IMG/VR virus record: IMGVR_UViG_2744054627_000015
Coordinates: 1-5,781 of that record
DNA: 5,781 bases
Direction: 5' to 3' (one strand)
From: a virus
Lineage: Duplodnaviria > Heunggongvirae > Uroviricota > Caudoviricetes
Positions 1 through 5,781 of this stretch are shown one piece after another. Below the pieces are notes generated by a model. It made no database searches, was not told the DNA's origin, and was given only the letters and a program-made list of their open reading frames with translations. Numbering within the stretch: position 1 is the stretch's first letter; each line of letters begins with the position of its first letter. The translations under genes and the position numbers were made by a program.

Positions 1-1062
1 TTCTCCCAAACCAAGGTATGCGAGAAGACCTGCTACATCCTTTCCACTCAAATGAGTCAGCGTATTGTCCAGCGGTTGTTTACCTGCCAGCGCATTAAGC
101 ATTGTCGTGGCAAAGTTCGGATCATTCCCCAGTGCCGCCGCCAGTTCGTTCAGTGTATCCAGTGCCGCAGGTGCAGAACCCACCATTGCCGCAATCGCCG
201 ATTTCACAAATGCCGTGGTGGCAATCTGTGTATTGTTGACCGACTGTGCCGCAGTAGGTGCTGTTGGCGTTCCGGTGAGTGCCGGACTCGACAGCGGCGC
301 TTTCAGTGCCAGCGCATTATTAATAGTGGTACTGAATTTCGGGTCATTGTTAATGGCTGCGGCAATTTCTTTCAGTGTGTCCAGCGTGGCTGGCGCACCG
401 TTAATCAGAGCAGTAATAGCGGCCTGAACAAACTCTGTGGTCGCAATCCGAGTGGTGTTATTTCCTGCTGCAGGCGTCGGCGCTTTTGGTTCTCCGGTAA
501 ATGTCGGATTATGTTTCTGCGCATACTGGGTATGAGGATCTTGTGCGGCAATGTGGTTTCTCATCTGGTCATCCACATACAGCTTTAATTCCAGGACTTT
601 ATCATCCACGTATTTACGGGTTGCCAGCACTACAGCAGGGTCGATTTTCAGGGTGATATTGTCCGTACTGCTGGTAATCAGCACCATGCGCACGGTCTGG
701 GTGCGCCCGCTGCCTTCAGCCAGTTGCGGCTTATAGCTTTCCGGGCAGTTGCCCACGGCAATCAATGCCCCGGACTCATCAAACAGGCCCACTTCACGTA
801 TCCACCAACCGCCCTCGTTTTCAGGGATCACCTGTTCAGCAATAATCTGGCTGCTGTTCTGCGGGTCGATATAAAGCATATTCAGCGCAGCCCGGCGTTT
901 CTCATTTACCAGTGCCGTCTGCTTTGCGTCCGGCGTTGGCAATACTCCGCCGCCATCGCCCACCGCCATATGGGTAATTTTTAGCGGCACACCGAGCGCG
1001 GCGGCGCTGGCAAGTTTCGCCGCGCCAATATCCGTCAGCAGGGTATAAAATTTTGTGCTCAT
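1..1062 (-). CDS. H: Phage tail fibre protein (P2 gpH-like), N-terminal 354 codons; the gene continues past the window start
   Basis: Minus-strand ATG at 1062..1060 overlaps the gene I stop (ATGA). Translation MSTKFYTLLTDIGAAKLASAAALGVPLKITHMAVGDGGGVLPTPDAKQTALVNE... resembles the conserved N-terminal domain of P2-family tail fibres as recalled. The frame stays open to position 1. It is absent from the ORF track only because no stop codon falls inside the window. Confidence 0.88.
   Translation of the reverse strand, partial: MSTKFYTLLTDIGAAKLASAAALGVPLKITHMAVGDGGGVLPTPDAKQTALVNEKRRAALNMLYIDPQNSSQIIAEQVIPENEGGWWIREVGLFDESGALIAVGNCPESYKPQLAEGSGRTQTVRMVLITSSTDNITLKIDPAVVLATRKYVDDKVLELKLYVDDQMRNHIAAQDPHTQYAQKHNPTFTGEPKAPTPAAGNNTTRIATTEFVQAAITALINGAPATLDTLKEIAAAINNDPKFSTTINNALALKAPLSSPALTGTPTAPTAAQSVNNTQIATTAFVKSAIAAMVGSAPAALDTLNELAAALGNDPNFATTMLNALAGKQPLDNTLTHLSGKDVAGLLAYLGLGE
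70..462 (-). repeat. Diverged tandem duplication inside tail-fibre gene H (two units of about 170 nt, 220 nt apart)
   Basis: Protein units at residues 201-257 and 276-331 align (NNTTRIATTEFVQAAITALINGAPATLDTLKEIAAAINNDPKFSTTINNALALKAPL against NNTQIATTAFVKSAIAAMVGSAPAALDTLNELAAALGNDPNFATTMLNALAGKQPL). At DNA level, 308-400 and 88-180 share runs such as ccagcgcatta. Confidence 0.6.
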
Positions 1063-1663
1063 GGATTCACTCTCATTGTGTCAATAACATGGACCGCCCC
1101 GCCTTCATGCGCGGTGCCACCGGAAATAATCGTTTCGTTGATATACGGATAGATCGTGATTTCTTCGCCAAGATAGCTGGCGGCTCCCACCCAATGCGGG
1201 CCGCTGGTCTGCAGATTGATGGACATGCCGATCATGTGGCGGCTACATGGTTTGGCATCGCTTATCAGTCGCTCAAGTTCCAGATAGGTATCTTCAGTGA
1301 TGCCCTGGTCCTGCACGCCGATATCTAGGCGAAACGTGCCCGCTGCCTCTCCGGTCTGCCACCACTCAATAATGCGGATCAGAAAGCCGAACGGCTCCAC
1401 CACCCGCCGCACGGCACTGGTGGTCCCTTTATGCTGATGAATATAAAAAGCATCCTTCACCACCTGGCGCTTGACGCTTTCTGTCCAGCCCTCGTCCCAG
1501 CGATCCACAGAGAACGCCCAGGCGAGATAAGGCAGGAAACTGACCGGACAGGTTGCCGGATTCCACAAGTCACGAAGCGGCACCTGCAGATCAGAATCCC
1601 GCTGCAGGTTTGCGCCAGTCGGCGCTCCAGTGGTGTTGAACCCGGTGGCAGCAGACTATTCAT
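1059..1663 (-). CDS. I: Baseplate assembly protein (P2 gpI-like) with an apparent 1-nt frameshift near 1598-1600; the intact body is the 174-codon frame 1059..1583
   Basis: Body frame (…LRDLWNPATCPVSFLPYLAWAFSVDRWDEGW…) resembles P2 gpI as recalled. The ATG at 1663 has a strong GGAGG (1673..1669, 5-nt spacer), sits 5 nt before the J stop, and encodes a gpI-like N-terminus (MNSLLPPGSTPLERRLAQTCSG), but in a different frame from the body. One extra C in the CCC run at 1598-1600 (G on the coding strand) would join the two. The stop overlaps the H start (ATGA). Confidence 0.72.
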
Positions 1664-2564
1664 CCGTTCCTCCGTTGGTTACGCTCCACTGCGTACATGA
1701 TGCCGCCTGTGTTTTGTTCAGGACCACATCCGCCAGAGGAGAAGCCAGCTCCACACGCTGCACACCCTCAACATGCAGGGCGGCAAAGATGGCGCTACGG
1801 CGAATATCCCGACCAAGACGCGTCTGACTGGCGATGTACTTCTGCAGGCTGGCTTTTGCCGCTGCCATTACCGGCTCTGCTTCCGGTCCCGGATAAAGAA
1901 AAATGGTGGCTTCCACGCGATACGGGATGATTTCTGCGCTGCGAACCGTAAGACGGTCAGCCACCGGGCGGACGTTCTCACTGTTCAGAGCTTTTCCCAC
2001 CACGTCCAGCAGGTCTTTTTCTGCAGTTCCATCGCCTTCGCGGCTAAGGACAGTCAGCACCACCTCTGCAGGTGCCGGGCTGGTTGCACTGGCATCCGCC
2101 ACGCGACCGTCGGCGCTTCGGGCATGAAATTCATAAGCTGCAGTTGGCCCCGCGACTGAAAGCCCTTCAAAGGCTGCAGGCACACGCAGGCGTAACGCTT
2201 CATCGCTTTCCATCACAGCTGCAACGGGCGGCACAGCGTCATTATCAGCAGGCGTCACCGTCAGGCGTTTCACGTTGTAGTTGGCAGCGAGCTGGTCAAG
2301 ATCGCCGCCCATCGCGTAAGCCACCATCACCGCCTGCGCGGCTTCGTTAATGCGCTGGCGCAGAAGCAACTCACGGTAAGCGTTCTCCTGCAACAATTTG
2401 GTGACGGGTTCAGATTCCAGTTCCAGCGTACGCATCACAGCTTCCTGCTCATCTTTCGGATGGAGCGCCACAAATTCTGCCTTACGTTCTGCAAACAGCG
2501 TTTCAAAGTCCGGCACATCCACAATCTGCGGTGCAGGCAACTGCGAAAGGTCAATCACTGCCAT
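1656..2564 (-). CDS. J: Baseplate assembly protein (P2 gpJ-like), 302 aa
   Basis: ORF-track frame 1656..2603 trimmed to the ATG at 2564, which is preceded by AGGAG (2575..2571, 6-nt spacer). N-terminus MAVIDLSQLPAPQIVDVPDFETLFAERKAEF is gpJ-like, and the length matches the 302 aa I recall for P2 gpJ. The start overlaps the 3' end of W by 14 nt. Confidence 0.9.
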   Translation of the reverse strand: MAVIDLSQLPAPQIVDVPDFETLFAERKAEFVALHPKDEQEAVMRTLELESEPVTKLLQENAYRELLLRQRINEAAQAVMVAYAMGGDLDQLAANYNVKRLTVTPADNDAVPPVAAVMESDEALRLRVPAAFEGLSVAGPTAAYEFHARSADGRVADASATSPAPAEVVLTVLSREGDGTAEKDLLDVVGKALNSENVRPVADRLTVRSAEIIPYRVEATIFLYPGPEAEPVMAAAKASLQKYIASQTRLGRDIRRSAIFAALHVEGVQRVELASPLADVVLNKTQAASCTQWSVTNGGTDE

Positions 2565-2910
2565 TCTCGGCTCCTGTTGATACGGAAAGGGAAACAGGCA
2601 CACCGTTATTACGCTGTCCGGTCAGTTCCACCACCATAGAACCGTCAAAATTGCTGTTGATGGTGATGGATTCCAGCGTCAGCCGAGGCTCCCAGCGACT
2701 CAGCGCCACATACACCGCCGACATAATCTGCAGGCGTAACGCCGGATTTTGTGGCTGGTCTATCAGCGCCGACAGCAGGGAACCATATTCACGACGGGCA
2801 ATGCGGCTACCCTGCGGCGTCAGCAGAATATCCCGCACCGACTGGCGCAGATGGTCAATATCAGTAATGGCTTTACCGCTGGTATTGTTCATCCCGATAT
2901 AAAGCGTCAT
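2551..2910 (-). CDS. W: Baseplate protein (P2 gpW-like), 119 aa
   Basis: Translation MTLYIGMNNTSGKAITDIDHLRQSVRDILLTPQGSRIARREYGSLLSALIDQPQNP... resembles P2 gpW as recalled. GGAGG (2921..2917) lies 6 nt upstream of the ATG at 2910. The ATG overlaps the V stop (ATGA). Confidence 0.9.
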   Translation of the reverse strand: MTLYIGMNNTSGKAITDIDHLRQSVRDILLTPQGSRIARREYGSLLSALIDQPQNPALRLQIMSAVYVALSRWEPRLTLESITINSNFDGSMVVELTGQRNNGVPVSLSVSTGAENGSD

Positions 2911-3485
2911 ACCGGGCCTCCGGTGGTGTCGCCACCTTTCTGGACGCCAGTATGCTGATGCGCATCAACCACGATCCCGTTAGAACTCATCGCACCGCCG
3001 CCCTGGGTAACGCCACCATTGATCACCACTTCGCTGTTAATACGTGCGCGGTCAGCCTCCAGTACAAACTCACTGGTTTTCAGGGTGATGTTGTCGACAG
3101 CCTCAATGACCATTGATTTGATGCCCCTGACATACCAGCGCCCGGTGGCGGGTTCGTATTCAAACCAGCCACCGTCAGGATATTCTGTCACGCAGGCGTC
3201 CGCCGACGTCGACGGCGGCGCGAACTGATTCGAATAGACAGCGGGCAACGCAAAGGCGGTTTCCAGATTGCCACCCAGACTCAGCAGCACCACCTGCTCA
3301 CCTTCCGATGGTTTCCACCATGTGCGGGCATTACCCGCACGCAGCGTCAGCCAGCTGATCCAGTTGGTTTCAAGGTCGCCTGTTTTCACCCGGCAAAGCC
3401 AGTTCTCCCGGTCCACTTCGGTGACTACACCAGTGCGAATCAGGTTGGTGATAAGGCGCATGATTTCGGTTAAATGTGCGTTCAT
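2907..3485 (-). CDS. V: Baseplate spike / tail protein (P2 gpV-like), 192 aa from the ATG at 3485
   Basis: Translation MNAHLTEIMRLITNLIRTGVVTEVD...KGGDTTGGPV aligns with the recalled gpV N-terminus (MNTLANIQELARALRNMIRTG...) and the C-terminal GG-rich tail. The ORF-track start at 3542 adds 19 residues with no counterpart in gpV, so the internal ATG is preferred. None of the candidate starts has a convincing Shine-Dalgarno. Confidence 0.82.
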   Translation of the reverse strand: MNAHLTEIMRLITNLIRTGVVTEVDRENWLCRVKTGDLETNWISWLTLRAGNARTWWKPSEGEQVVLLSLGGNLETAFALPAVYSNQFAPPSTSADACVTEYPDGGWFEYEPATGRWYVRGIKSMVIEAVDNITLKTSEFVLEADRARINSEVVINGGVTQGGGAMSSNGIVVDAHQHTGVQKGGDTTGGPV

Positions 3486-3530
3486 GAGAAAAACTAACCG
3501 CCATTGCAAACGCAATCGAGTAGATAGGAA

Positions 3531-3548
3531 TGTTTGATTCATGGCACA
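3531..3548 (-). promoter_or_regulatory. Candidate Ogr/Delta-type late-activator box (TGT-N12-ACA) upstream of V
   Basis: Minus strand reads TGTgccatgaatcaaACA, centred about 54 nt upstream of the V ATG. P2-family late promoters carry a TGT-N12-ACA dyad at about -55 from the transcription start, and V is the first gene of a late operon in P2. It is a single occurrence that could arise by chance, and the spacing to the ATG is tight. Confidence 0.3.
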
Positions 3549-3576
3549 ATACGTTGCTTACTTTTAAGGATATAAA

Positions 3577-4021
3577 ATGAAAGACAATTTAAATCTTCTT
3601 ATAAAAAATTAATAAGAAAGGCATTTCCTGAATTTAGCAATAAGGTAACATGGACTTTACTCACTGCAGGGATCGGTATTCTTGCACTACCTGCACCCAC
3701 ATATTTATTATTCGTAAACCTTATAATTGATTTTTACAACAAAACAACTAATTCAGAAATAAGCTTCTTAAGATTGATAGCATTACACCAAGTAGTGGGG
3801 TTGCTTTAACTTTAATTCTATCCGGGCTAGTCTTTCACCTATTAATAAAAGTCCCCCATATATACCAAGAAATTCTAAAAGAGAATAACCAAAAAGAAAT
3901 ACAGGAAAGAAAAAGAGTAGCAGACGTTAAACTTTATGAGGCATTTATTGATATTCTACCAACAACCTCGTTATCAATTGAATTCTTAAAAGACCATAAT
4001 TTTGAAAACTCCCTATCATGA
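3577..4021 (+). pseudogene. Disrupted ORF for a predicted two-transmembrane protein (about 148 aa if two single-base homopolymer deletions are repaired)
   Basis: ATG at 3577 with AAGGA (3566-3570, 6-nt spacer) opens an 11-codon ORF in frame 1. Frame 0 is then stop-free across 3576..3806 and frame 2 across 3752..4018, with no usable start codon in either. Adding one A to the A6 run (3603-3608) and one G to the G4 run (3797-3800) yields a continuous protein with two hydrophobic helices and a charged C-terminal tail. Confidence 0.4.
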
Positions 4022-4057
4022 TAATAATACAAAAGATATTAGTAATCTTGAATACGG

Positions 4058-4336
4058 GTGGGTCATGCAGATCAACATTTTCATGACAATGAAATTGAAG
4101 ATAAAGCCACTCATCTTTACAGTGAAATAATAAAGTTTAATTATTTTCTCGCTTATAAATCGCACAATATCAATAACTATATGTTTAGCATGCTTACTGA
4201 CAGAGATCGAGCTATGGTGATGGAATTACTACCTCAAACAAAGGAAAATATAAAAATAGCCAATGAGTGGAGTTCTACAATTCATCAGCTTTACTGTGAC
4301 TTTATCTCCACATGTAGGAATAACTTAGCCATATAA
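4058..4336 (+). CDS. Hypothetical protein (92 aa from GTG at 4058, or 51 aa from ATG at 4181); island cargo of unknown function
   Basis: ORF-track frame, same frame as the upstream disrupted ORF and separated from it by a cluster of stops at 4019-4051. It is Asn/Ile/Lys-rich, as expected for AT-rich DNA. No good RBS precedes either start. It ends at TAA 4334-4336, 14 nt from the convergent S stop. Confidence 0.4.
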   Translation: MGHADQHFHDNEIEDKATHLYSEIIKFNYFLAYKSHNINNYMFSMLTDRDRAMVMELLPQTKENIKIANEWSSTIHQLYCDFISTCRNNLAI

Positions 4337-4350
4337 ATCATATGCTGTAG

Positions 4351-4596
4351 TTAATTAAGACAAGTAGCGAAAAAAATATCACGAGTTATCATTTCCGCTT
4401 CGTCGTTAACACCCAAAAGGCGACGCTCTGCGTAACGGACCTCCGGCCCTTTGCGACTGACGCGATCGCGCAGGCCGTAATGGTGAACACGGGCAATGCG
4501 CTGCACCTTACCTTCAAACTGCACGCTGGCAGAATCGGCGCTGGCGGCAGTTTTCAGATATTTTGTGGTGCGTAGCTTTGCAAACATCTGACGTTT
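4351..4596 (-). pseudogene. S: 3' fragment of the tail-completion / virion-morphogenesis gene (P2 gpS-like), truncated at its 5' side by the IS
   Basis: Translation ...KRQMFAKLRTTKYLKTAASADSASVQFEGKVQRIARVHHYGLRDRVSRKGPEVRYAERRLLG... fits my recollection of the gpS / Mu gpG family (MFxKLRTxxYLK ... IARVHH-GLRDR). An in-frame stop at 4621-4623 lies inside the IS end. Only about 80 of the expected 150 codons are present. Confidence 0.55.
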
Positions 4597-4649
4597 TGTA
4601 ATGACCCACTGAAATCCTGCTCAGGTCATAATGAGTGGAGATCACAGAC

Positions 4650-5003
4650 ATGAGCATCACGATGGACGAAGAAATCAAACGTTGGACGGCCAAGCGCAAG
4701 TCCGCCTTGGTCATGGAAATCATTCAGGGCAAGACCACCGTCGCCGAAGCGGCTCGAGCCTTTGATTTGCCGCCCTCCGAGATTGAAGAATGGGTAGATG
4801 ACGCCAAACGGGGCATGGAAAACGCCTTACGGGCCAAGCCACTGGATATTCGCGAGCAGTACGAGAAGCAGCTCAAGGAACTCCAGGAAGCTTATGGCGA
4901 GGCCATGCTGGAGTTACGCGCCAGAAAAAGCTGGCCTCCCTGCTGGGCGAGGACGACAGATAGTCGCCGATGTTCAGCAGGGATTACGCGCAGAAGGTAT
5001 TGA
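4650..5003 (+). CDS. IS3-family transposase OrfA (HTH DNA-binding protein), with an aberrant C-terminal extension in this copy
   Basis: ATG at 4650 preceded by GGAG (4637-4640, 9-nt spacer). Translation MSITMDEEIKRWTAKRKSALVMEIIQGKTTVAEAARAFDLPPSEIEEWVDD...EAMLELRARK parallels IS2 OrfA (...[23 protein letters not shown]). The canonical OrfA tail KKLASLLGEDDR* is in the -1 frame after the A-run at 4925-4929. The ORF-track GTG start at 4635 was not used. Confidence 0.8.
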   Translation: MSITMDEEIKRWTAKRKSALVMEIIQGKTTVAEAARAFDLPPSEIEEWVDDAKRGMENALRAKPLDIREQYEKQLKELQEAYGEAMLELRARKSWPPCWARTTDSRRCSAGITRRRY

Positions 5004-5781
5004 TGTCTCCGTCAGCAAGCTCTGCCGCTGGTTTGGCCTGCCGCGTCGTAGTTGGTACTACCGCAGCGTCAAGGCCGCGCCCAAGCTTCAGGAGCATCTG
5101 GTCACCCCGATCAAAAACATGATTGAGGAGAACCCATCGTTCGGTTACCGGACGGTTGCAGCCCTGTTGGGGTTCAACAAGAACACGGTACAGCGCATCT
5201 TCCAGCTCAAGGGCTGGCAAGTTCGCAAGCGTCCGGTTGGGTTTCGCCCCCGGATCCAGGCCCTGCCTTCGGTGGCCTCAGCGCCCAACCAACGCTGGGC
5301 GACGGACCTATGCCGGATCTGGGCTGGTCGCGATGGCTGGTGTTCCTTGGCGCTGGTGATTGATTGCCATACCCGTGAACTACTGGGATGGCATCTCTCG
5401 CGCAGTGGTAAATCGAAAACGGCCGAGGCAGCGCTGGAGCAAGCCTTAATTGCTCGCTTCGGCAGCTTGGGACGAGTTGCATCGCCGTTTTTGTTACGTA
5501 GCGACAATGGGTTGGTGTTTACCAGCCGCAACTACACAGCACTGGTGAAGAGCTATGGGTTGCAGCAGGAGTTCATCACGCCGTACACGCCGGAACAAAA
5601 CGGCATGGTCGAGCGGGTGATCAGAACGCTCAAGGAGCAGTGTGCCCATCGGCAGAGGTTCGAGACCTTGCAGCATGCCAGTCGGGTGATTGGCGACTGG
5701 ATCCAGTTTTACAACCAGAAGCGTCCTCACCAGGCGCTAAAGATGAAAACACCGGCGCAGGCCTATGCCGAAGCCGCTTAG
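4927..5781 (+). CDS. IS3-family transposase OrfB (DDE catalytic domain); here in the +1 frame relative to OrfA
   Basis: DDE(K) signature: D at 5305-5307 (WATDL), D at 5503-5505 (RSDNG), E at 5611-5613 followed by K seven residues later (ERVIRTLK). No ATG near the 5' end, as is typical when OrfB is made only as an OrfAB fusion. The frame is open from 4798, but the part upstream of the A-run overlaps OrfA and is not considered coding. Stop TAG at 5779-5781. Confidence 0.82.
   Translation, partial: KAGLPAGRGRQIVADVQQGLRAEGIDVSVSKLCRWFGLPRRSWYYRSVKAAPKLQEHLVTPIKNMIEENPSFGYRTVAALLGFNKNTVQRIFQLKGWQVRKRPVGFRPRIQALPSVASAPNQRWATDLCRIWAGRDGWCSLALVIDCHTRELLGWHLSRSGKSKTAEAALEQALIARFGSLGRVASPFLLRSDNGLVFTSRNYTALVKSYGLQQEFITPYTPEQNGMVERVIRTLKEQCAHRQRFETLQHASRVIGDWIQFYNQKRPHQALKMKTPAQAYAEAA

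Follow-up and report, generated by a model that had tools for sequence, protein, structure and literature searches.

The window analysed here is the whole stretch of 5,781 nucleotides (positions 1 to 5,781 of the IMG/VR virus record IMGVR_UViG_2744054627_000015, Caudoviricetes); its source is contig LSBR01000054.1 of assembly GCA_001641855.1. On the minus strand it holds a P2-type tail and baseplate block with the genes of the tail fibre, gpI, gpJ, gpW and gpV, followed by an island, a truncated gpS and an element of the IS3 family (Table 1). The island, 0.8 kb long and with about 31% GC, lies between gpV and the truncated gpS. In the tail-fibre gene there is an internal repeat, with two segments of about 200 nt (85–286 and 307–508) that are about 65% identical. 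At the other side, the IS3-family element is followed by mcr-3, dgkA and a second copy of the IS (4594–5781 in the window and 5783–8248 in L038), so that a colistin-resistance unit (IS-mcr-3-dgkA-IS) sits inside gene S of a chromosomal-looking P2-like prophage.

Table 1. Features of the slot between gpV and gpS and of its borders (window coordinates; changes are given from the reference to the window)
Feature	Position	Strand	Remarks
gpV, baseplate spike, left boundary of the slot	2907–3485	−	PF04717
TGT-N12-ACA dyad	3531–3548	−	position equivalent to the annotated activator site of the P2 late promoter P_V; low weight
RBS AAGGA (3565–3569) and true start ATG (3577–3579)	3565–3579	+	start agrees with the RefSeq CDS in HH194M
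Island gene, one CDS of 253 codons	3577–4336	+	759 bases here, 762 when intact; fills the AT-rich island
Indel 1	3602, run 3603–3608	+	A7 to A6; frame shifted after codon 9
Indel 2	3763, base 3764	+	CC to C; frame shifted at codon 63
Indel 3	4011, run 4010–4012	+	CC to CCC, an insertion; frame shifted at about codon 146; makes the stops TGA TAA TAA
Indel 4	4059, run 4060–4062	+	GGGG to GGG; true frame restored; gives the 92-aa ORF its apparent GTG start
92-aa ORF	4058–4336	+	GTG start; residues 162–253 of the 253-aa protein, last three helices of the C-terminal domain
gpS, 3′ remnant, tail completion, right boundary of the slot	4354–4593	−	PF05069; truncated by the IS at 4594; homopolymer deletion at 4369
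IS3-family insertion sequence interrupting gpS	4594–5781	+	left arm of the IS-mcr-3-dgkA-IS unit on the source contig

The island gene and gpV diverge from a shared intergenic region of 91 nt. In that region, about 46 nt separate the gpV start from the dyad upstream of it (the TGT-N12-ACA motif is not above chance, with 1.35 occurrences expected in the window). Since the island gene starts only about 29 nt from the dyad, the signals for its expression and the late promoter must overlap. The scan for a sigma-70 promoter upstream of the island gene gave nothing convincing, and no intrinsic terminator was found.

In the source assembly, the gene caller annotated the ORF at 4058–4336 as a gene of 92 aa. 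The ORF is present as the sequence-only reading had described it, on the plus strand with a GTG start, downstream of a two-TM coding stretch in the same orientation and convergent with the gpS remnant. When the island was shuffled 2000 times with its dinucleotides preserved, an ORF of at least 92 codons arose in 40 cases, so that this length is moderately unusual for DNA with 31% GC. That the sequence is coding and belongs to the island, as had been assumed, agrees with the dN/dS values given below and with the intact alleles. The ORF is, almost without doubt, the C-terminal fragment of one gene of 253 codons and no independent gene.

Pairwise alignment of the island with that of E. coli HH194M gives no substitution and five single-base homopolymer indels, four of them inside the CDS. 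As a result of these four indels, the island gene stands in five frame segments in this assembly. With the four repaired, the translation is identical to WP_058101143.1, a hypothetical protein of E. coli HH194M. By megablast, the island is matched in 12 of 5,426 complete E. coli genomes with 98.8–99.4% identity, over 884 bases (881 in the window), and each time it lies between gpV and gpS. The CDS of 253 codons is uninterrupted in 10 of the 12, and this speaks against the two-gene cassette that had been proposed; the remaining two have an IS1 in it. In the porcine ETEC genomes ETEC4089 and ETEC1702 (protein P0075), the IS1 cuts the gene after codon 48. These two insertions are genuine inactivations, unlike the state of the copy in the window.

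The four indels of the island gene are very probably sequencing or assembly errors and not decay, because the same class of homopolymer indel also breaks gene I, gene S, the slippery site of the IS, mcr-3 and dgkA. Over 8.2 kb, the source contig differs from the best references by 2 substitutions and by 14 homopolymer indels, of which 12 are deletions and 2 insertions; some are in runs of only 2–3 bases, and all genes of the contig are affected. The window accounts for 8 homopolymer indels and 1 substitution; against HH194M, over 4,596 aligned bases, there are 7 homopolymer indels and 1 substitution. In gene I, the change of AAA into AA at 1596 leaves gpI in two ORFs. Ahead of the gpV start, A6 has become A5 (at 3488) and, at the 3′ end of gpS, A8 has become A7 (at 4369). 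The sole difference between the IS and its reference copy is A6 to A5 at 4928, at the programmed-frameshift site (an A6G slippery sequence), a change that makes orfA and orfB look abnormal. Beyond the right end of the window, the same contig has mcr-3 split into 3 ORFs and dgkA into 2; compared with an intact mcr-3.26 plasmid, 6 homopolymer indels and 1 substitution fall within the 2.5 kb of the mcr-3/dgkA stretch.

The alternative is that the four frameshifts are real and that the gene is a true pseudogene, decaying in a prophage already crippled by the IS in gpS. It is improbable in view of the ratio of 14 indels to 2 substitutions, with every indel homopolymeric and 12 of the 14 being deletions, and of the recurrence of the same class of change in the genes and sites just listed (twice in mcr-3). 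Further, two of the four indels of the island gene fall in runs of two bases, where true slippage is rare, and the gene does not carry a single substitution with respect to the intact allele. What can be said for real decay is that gpS is truly interrupted by the IS, so that selection on the prophage may be relaxed, that the same gene is inactivated by IS1 in the two ETEC genomes, and that one plasmid copy of the IS (H19) also has the A5 variant. For the IS insertion in gpS, which is a structural difference, one may presume that it is real. In the public record of GCA_001641855.1, an artefactual ORF is thus called a gene, and mcr-3 and dgkA are shattered in the same record. In scans of raw sequence, differences from near-identical relatives that are confined to homopolymers should be checked before cassettes of small genes are proposed.

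With sequencing or assembly error as the origin of the frameshifts, most of what had been read into the ORF can be put in place. Its 5′ boundary is an artefact, with the G4 to G3 deletion at 4059 lying under the apparent GTG start. The doubt about the start (GTG at 4058 or ATG at 4181, both with a poor RBS) was justified as to the RBS, since translation does not begin at 4058, and not as to the choice of codons, the real start being ATG 3577. The membrane part and the soluble partner do exist, as domains of one protein and not as two genes. What had been taken for a separate two-TM ORF upstream is the N-terminal portion of that one gene. In related islands, the sequence of the ORF is kept, always within the longer frame. 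The 92 residues cover only the last 60% or so of the C-terminal domain and are, therefore, not even one complete domain. That they form an independent soluble protein, started at GTG 4058 or ATG 4181 and paired with a separate two-TM protein in a two-gene cassette, is hardly tenable: the ORF exists and was called by the gene caller, but there is a separate gene at this place in no relative, every intact homologue reads through as a CDS of 250–265 codons, an RBS is absent, the apparent start is made by the indel, and the fragment lacks the first 60 or so residues of the domain, including those most conserved in the superfamily (D117, LPS and FLxxHDF).

The intact protein of 253 aa consists of an N-terminal module with two TM segments and a helical C-terminal domain (C-domain) of about 150 residues. 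The N-terminus is basic and helical (amphipathic) and carries an invariant FPEFSNKVTW motif. TM1 is a long hydrophobic stretch with a kink at an invariant LPAP; a short, weakly charged loop and TM2 follow. In the AF2 model, TM2 continues as one helix (residues 74–127) into a helical bundle (residues 100–253, approximately), and the pLDDT of the C-domain is above 90. Counted together, K and R number 6 in the N-terminal part, 2 in the loop and 7 behind TM2. Because of this distribution, the protein is probably an inner-membrane protein with both termini inside (N-in/C-in) and with the C-domain in the cytoplasm, as predicted from the sequence and the model. Two assignments of the C-domain were considered and rejected. 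An HD-phosphohydrolase could be suspected from the HDF motif, but H and D are only about 75% conserved and the E. coli allele has HN; for a HEPN domain, the Rx4-6H motif is missing. The protein belongs to neither the HEPN, nor the SLATT, nor the P2 Orf30 family.

The close family comprises 31 clusters at 90% identity, all of about 253 aa, and is found in Escherichia, Salmonella, Enterobacter, Klebsiella, Raoultella, Lonsdalea and Erwinia. In 29 clusters, the full-length architecture is kept at 45–99% identity. Between the E. coli and Klebsiella genes, dN/dS is 0.18 overall, with 0.20 for residues 1–100, 0.11 for residues 101–161 and 0.18 for residues 162–253. With values between 0.11 and 0.20 in all three segments, selection runs across the artificial boundary of the ORF. 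The absence of a recognisable family, reported earlier for the 92-aa ORF, holds for the fragment and for the whole protein. The 253-aa protein matches no Pfam family at E ≤ 10 (no SLATT or other TM-effector family for the N-terminal module, and no HEPN or Abi_C family), and the ORF gave nothing there either. In PADLOC-DB v2.0.0, no family is matched by either sequence at E ≤ 10. Across the two sequences, the best match in PHROGs is phrog_20378 (E 0.013) and the best one in NCBIfam is MetA (E 0.022, far below the curated cut-off); both are marginal and were dismissed as noise. A sequence profile search of the PDB gave only SEC39 (E 0.16), and no Foldseek match in the PDB or BFVD had an E value below 0.1. 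Among 50,697 phage records, neither megablast with the island nor tblastn with the protein and with the allele P0033 gave a match. Members of the close family come solely from prophages and UViGs.

The slot between gpS and gpV of P2-type prophages has received the intact gene by horizontal transfer, as a moron on the strand opposite to that of the tail genes. The order gpV, island gene, gpS, with the gene on the opposite strand, is present in all 18 related loci (17 tested, plus L001). The 17 include 12 IMG/VR contigs, 7 of which span 32–38 kb, like a P2 genome, and in these 12 contigs too the gene is one uninterrupted CDS. In P2, the slot is occupied by orf30, whose region counts among the three moron regions recognised in P2-like phages (PMC3091744; PMC6823313). 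The nonessential P2 orf30 (AAD03281.1) shares with the island gene the S-V slot, the opposite-strand orientation, a similar size (261 aa vs. 253 aa), a high AT content, hydrophobic segments and a divergent intergenic region of 84–91 nt that contains the P_V late promoter. Unlike these features, the sequences have nothing detectable in common, either directly (BLASTP E 4.5) or as profiles (hhalign probability 0.1%). Judged by sequence comparison, P2 orf30 is a positional analogue of the island gene, not a homologue.

The systematic studies of defence hotspots in P2 cover only the cos-proximal (tin/old) and Z/fun loci, and the S-V slot is not treated as a defence hotspot in them (PMC9122126; PMC13586616). 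Like old, tin and the Z/fun genes of P2 (Rousset et al. 2022; PMC9122126; PMC13586616), the island gene is nonessential, AT-rich and quickly swapped cargo of P2 prophages, and its expected role would be in the lysogen, directed against other phages. It differs from them in its locus and its protein family, and its function is a predicted one.

The slot gene of E. coli P2-like prophages comes in at least two alleles; these share only 47% identity, in backbones with 95% identity in gpV (L018–L020, from IMG/VR, compared with L001). The P0033-type allele, with 169 member sequences, is far commoner than the type of the window (the 12 of 5,426 complete genomes mentioned above). The turnover of slot-gene alleles is rapid, far faster than that of the flanking structural genes. 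In one lineage (L005/L006, 5263–5925), an additional and unrelated gene for a two-TM protein of 220 aa is present in the gpV-gpS slot, upstream of the family member; the slot is, therefore, not limited to a single cargo gene.

Beyond Enterobacterales, 16 loci with a homologue came out of a scan of species-representative genomes, in which a set of 19 query sequences was used. The hosts are Marinomonas, Halomonas, Pseudoalteromonas, Aeromonas, Photobacterium and Bowmanella, as well as Stutzerimonas, Gilvimarinus, Pseudomonas, Pararhizobium, Thiothrix and Flavobacterium. In none of the 16 loci are there P2 tail genes around the homologue, and no neighbouring gene family recurs across them. In marine Gammaproteobacteria, including Pseudomonas and Stutzerimonas, the relatives are single-gene integron cassettes. 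The attC sites were assessed by repeat analysis, inspection and folding. In Pseudomonas sp. G34 (L035), 14–16 copies of an attC-like repeat of about 80 nt (CTAAC...GTTAG) bracket single genes, the homologue among them. In Stutzerimonas (L030), there are 5–6 repeats, and an IntI-type integrase (SAM_4 and Phage_integrase) lies divergently and directly upstream. In 11 of 13 loci, the stop codon passes directly into TAACAA, and a GTTA follows 45–125 nt downstream. When five candidate attC sites were folded, three (L021, L030 and L031) formed hairpins closed by the TAAC and GTTA ends. At the copy in the window, which sits in the prophage slot, no attC is visible.

A nearly identical attC-like element of about 68 nt comes right after the stop codon in L021 (6742–6810), L023 (6757–6825) and L024 (6709–6777). 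Its carriers are two Marinomonas species and Halomonas olivaria, and the sharing of the element suggests a recent transfer of the cassette between genera. Amid ordinary cassette cargo, the neighbours of the homologues include PtuA and PtuB of Septu, GajB of Gabija, methyltransferases, restriction-modification (RM) genes, HipA, DUF6602 and a SEFIR/TIR protein. The immediate neighbour in Pseudoalteromonas is a defence-like SEFIR/TIR_2 protein of 495 aa (L025, 4425–5912) and, in Pararhizobium, a helicase of the HNH-DEAD/ResIII type, also defence-like (L032, 3217–4920). Integron cassettes are known to store compact, often single-gene defence systems (bioRxiv 10.1101/2024.07.02.601686; 10.1101/2024.07.02.601719). 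One of these, "Brigantia" of the V. cholerae superintegron, is a TM-only defence protein (bioRxiv 10.1101/2024.07.02.601686). By description alone, the relatives resemble Brigantia in being single-gene integron cassettes for a TM protein with no known domain; unlike Brigantia, the copy in the window is in a prophage slot and not in an integron.

The C-domain defines a larger superfamily, with 928 clusters at 50% identity in an exhaustive profile search (E ≤ 1e-3). Among the best 150 clusters, about 40 are full-length look-alikes, and most of the others share only the C-domain, placed behind other N-termini with one or two TM segments. There are also fusions of the C-domain to enzymatic heads: a TIR_2 head (P0117), a TIR head of the CAP12/Pycsar type (P0153, P0168 and P0171), a Schlafen/AlbA_2 head (P0087) and an HNH head (P0151). 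Such fusions are rare and mostly metagenomic singletons; P0117 is a singleton on a contig of 2.1 kb. In P0174, two C-terminal domains stand in tandem with no effector head. An HMM built from the Enterobacterales C-domain alone recovers the fusion proteins over the whole domain with E values of 1e-20 to 1e-26, and the homology of the C-domain is therefore solid. The PADLOC matches in the superfamily fall only on the TIR, HNH and AlbA heads, with none on the C-domain.

A common C-terminal domain on swappable N-terminal heads is also the architecture of PycTM and PycTIR in Pycsar, of 2TM-SAVED and TIR-SAVED in CBASS, and of the ThsA variants in Thoeris. The head types shared with these effectors are the two-TM, the TIR (including the CAP12/Pycsar type) and the HNH ones. 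Unlike in CBASS, Pycsar and Thoeris, a gene for a CD-NTase, a cyclase, ThsB or another signal producer adjoins in none of the loci; the C-domain has the form of an all-helical bundle and not a cNMP-binding, SAVED, STING or SLOG fold, and no PADLOC model matches it. Because there is neither a signal-generating partner nor a matching sensor fold, the protein falls outside CBASS, Pycsar and Thoeris.

The explanation that we favour overall, at somewhat better than even odds, is that the 92-aa ORF is a fragment of a frameshifted moron gene whose intact protein is a putative one-protein anti-phage system. We read it in this way because the C-domain is found on swappable N-termini, because there is no conserved partner, and because the gene travels singly in two kinds of cargo site. 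The protein would work with no dedicated partner, since it is isolated among structural genes of the opposite strand in prophages and is a one-gene cassette in integrons. Taken for itself, the putative anti-phage function, exerted by a single protein acting on the membrane, has about an even chance of being right; the assignment of the TM module as effector and of the C-domain as sensor is tentative. In the proposed mechanism, the intact protein would act alone as a one-protein system. Its cytoplasmic C-terminal domain would sense an infection cue or hold the protein in check. The two-TM module, joined to it by the continuous helix, would damage or depolarise the membrane once triggered. The outcome would be abortive infection or the exclusion of a superinfecting phage.

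The fusion partners of the C-domain (TIR, CAP12-type TIR, HNH and Schlafen/AlbA_2) are typical immune-effector domains, genes of Septu, Gabija, SEFIR and RM occur in the neighbourhoods, and the gene diverges far faster than the structural genes on its flanks, as would be fitting in an arms race. Given these three observations, a role unrelated to phages is unlikely, whether as a lysogenic-conversion or host-fitness factor (envelope, stress) or as a selfish, addictive toxin-like cassette that stabilises its carrier. In favour of such a role, the moron slots of P2 do hold cargo other than defence genes, like neaT at Z/fun (PMC3573123), integron arrays contain many non-defence genes, and no defence model matches the protein.

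The inner-membrane location, the origin from a prophage moron within the tail-gene region and the fast turnover of alleles would also suit a superinfection-exclusion factor, which would block genome injection or an entry component at the inner membrane and leave the cell unharmed. Such a factor would resemble the membrane morons of temperate phages, P22 SieA and HK97 gp15, and the orientation opposite to the tail genes suggests expression in the lysogen. Exclusion of this kind is, nonetheless, quite unlikely: the same C-domain occurs on cytoplasmic enzymatic effectors (TIR, HNH, AlbA_2), which would be unable to block injection, and, away from prophages, integron cassettes of the family are widespread too.

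Read as a one-protein anti-phage system, the protein would be of a known kind (single-protein defence, or a moron whose effector is a TM module). What is new is the domain and the locus; its function is a predicted one. The C-domain may possibly be an undescribed phage-sensing or regulatory module on interchangeable heads, and the protein the founder of a new family of single-protein Abi systems present in the orf30 slot and in integron cassettes; we advance this with some reserve. Behind the artefactual ORF there is a real, conserved and previously unannotated gene family with a defence-like modularity and mobility, in a gene of only 0.76 kb. If the anti-phage reading is true, the orf30 slot would be a third defence hotspot of P2-like phages, beside tin/old and Z/fun. 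If the protein is a defence protein, it would bring a new sensor domain to the anti-phage toolkit, and the long-ignored orf30 position would be a defence locus.
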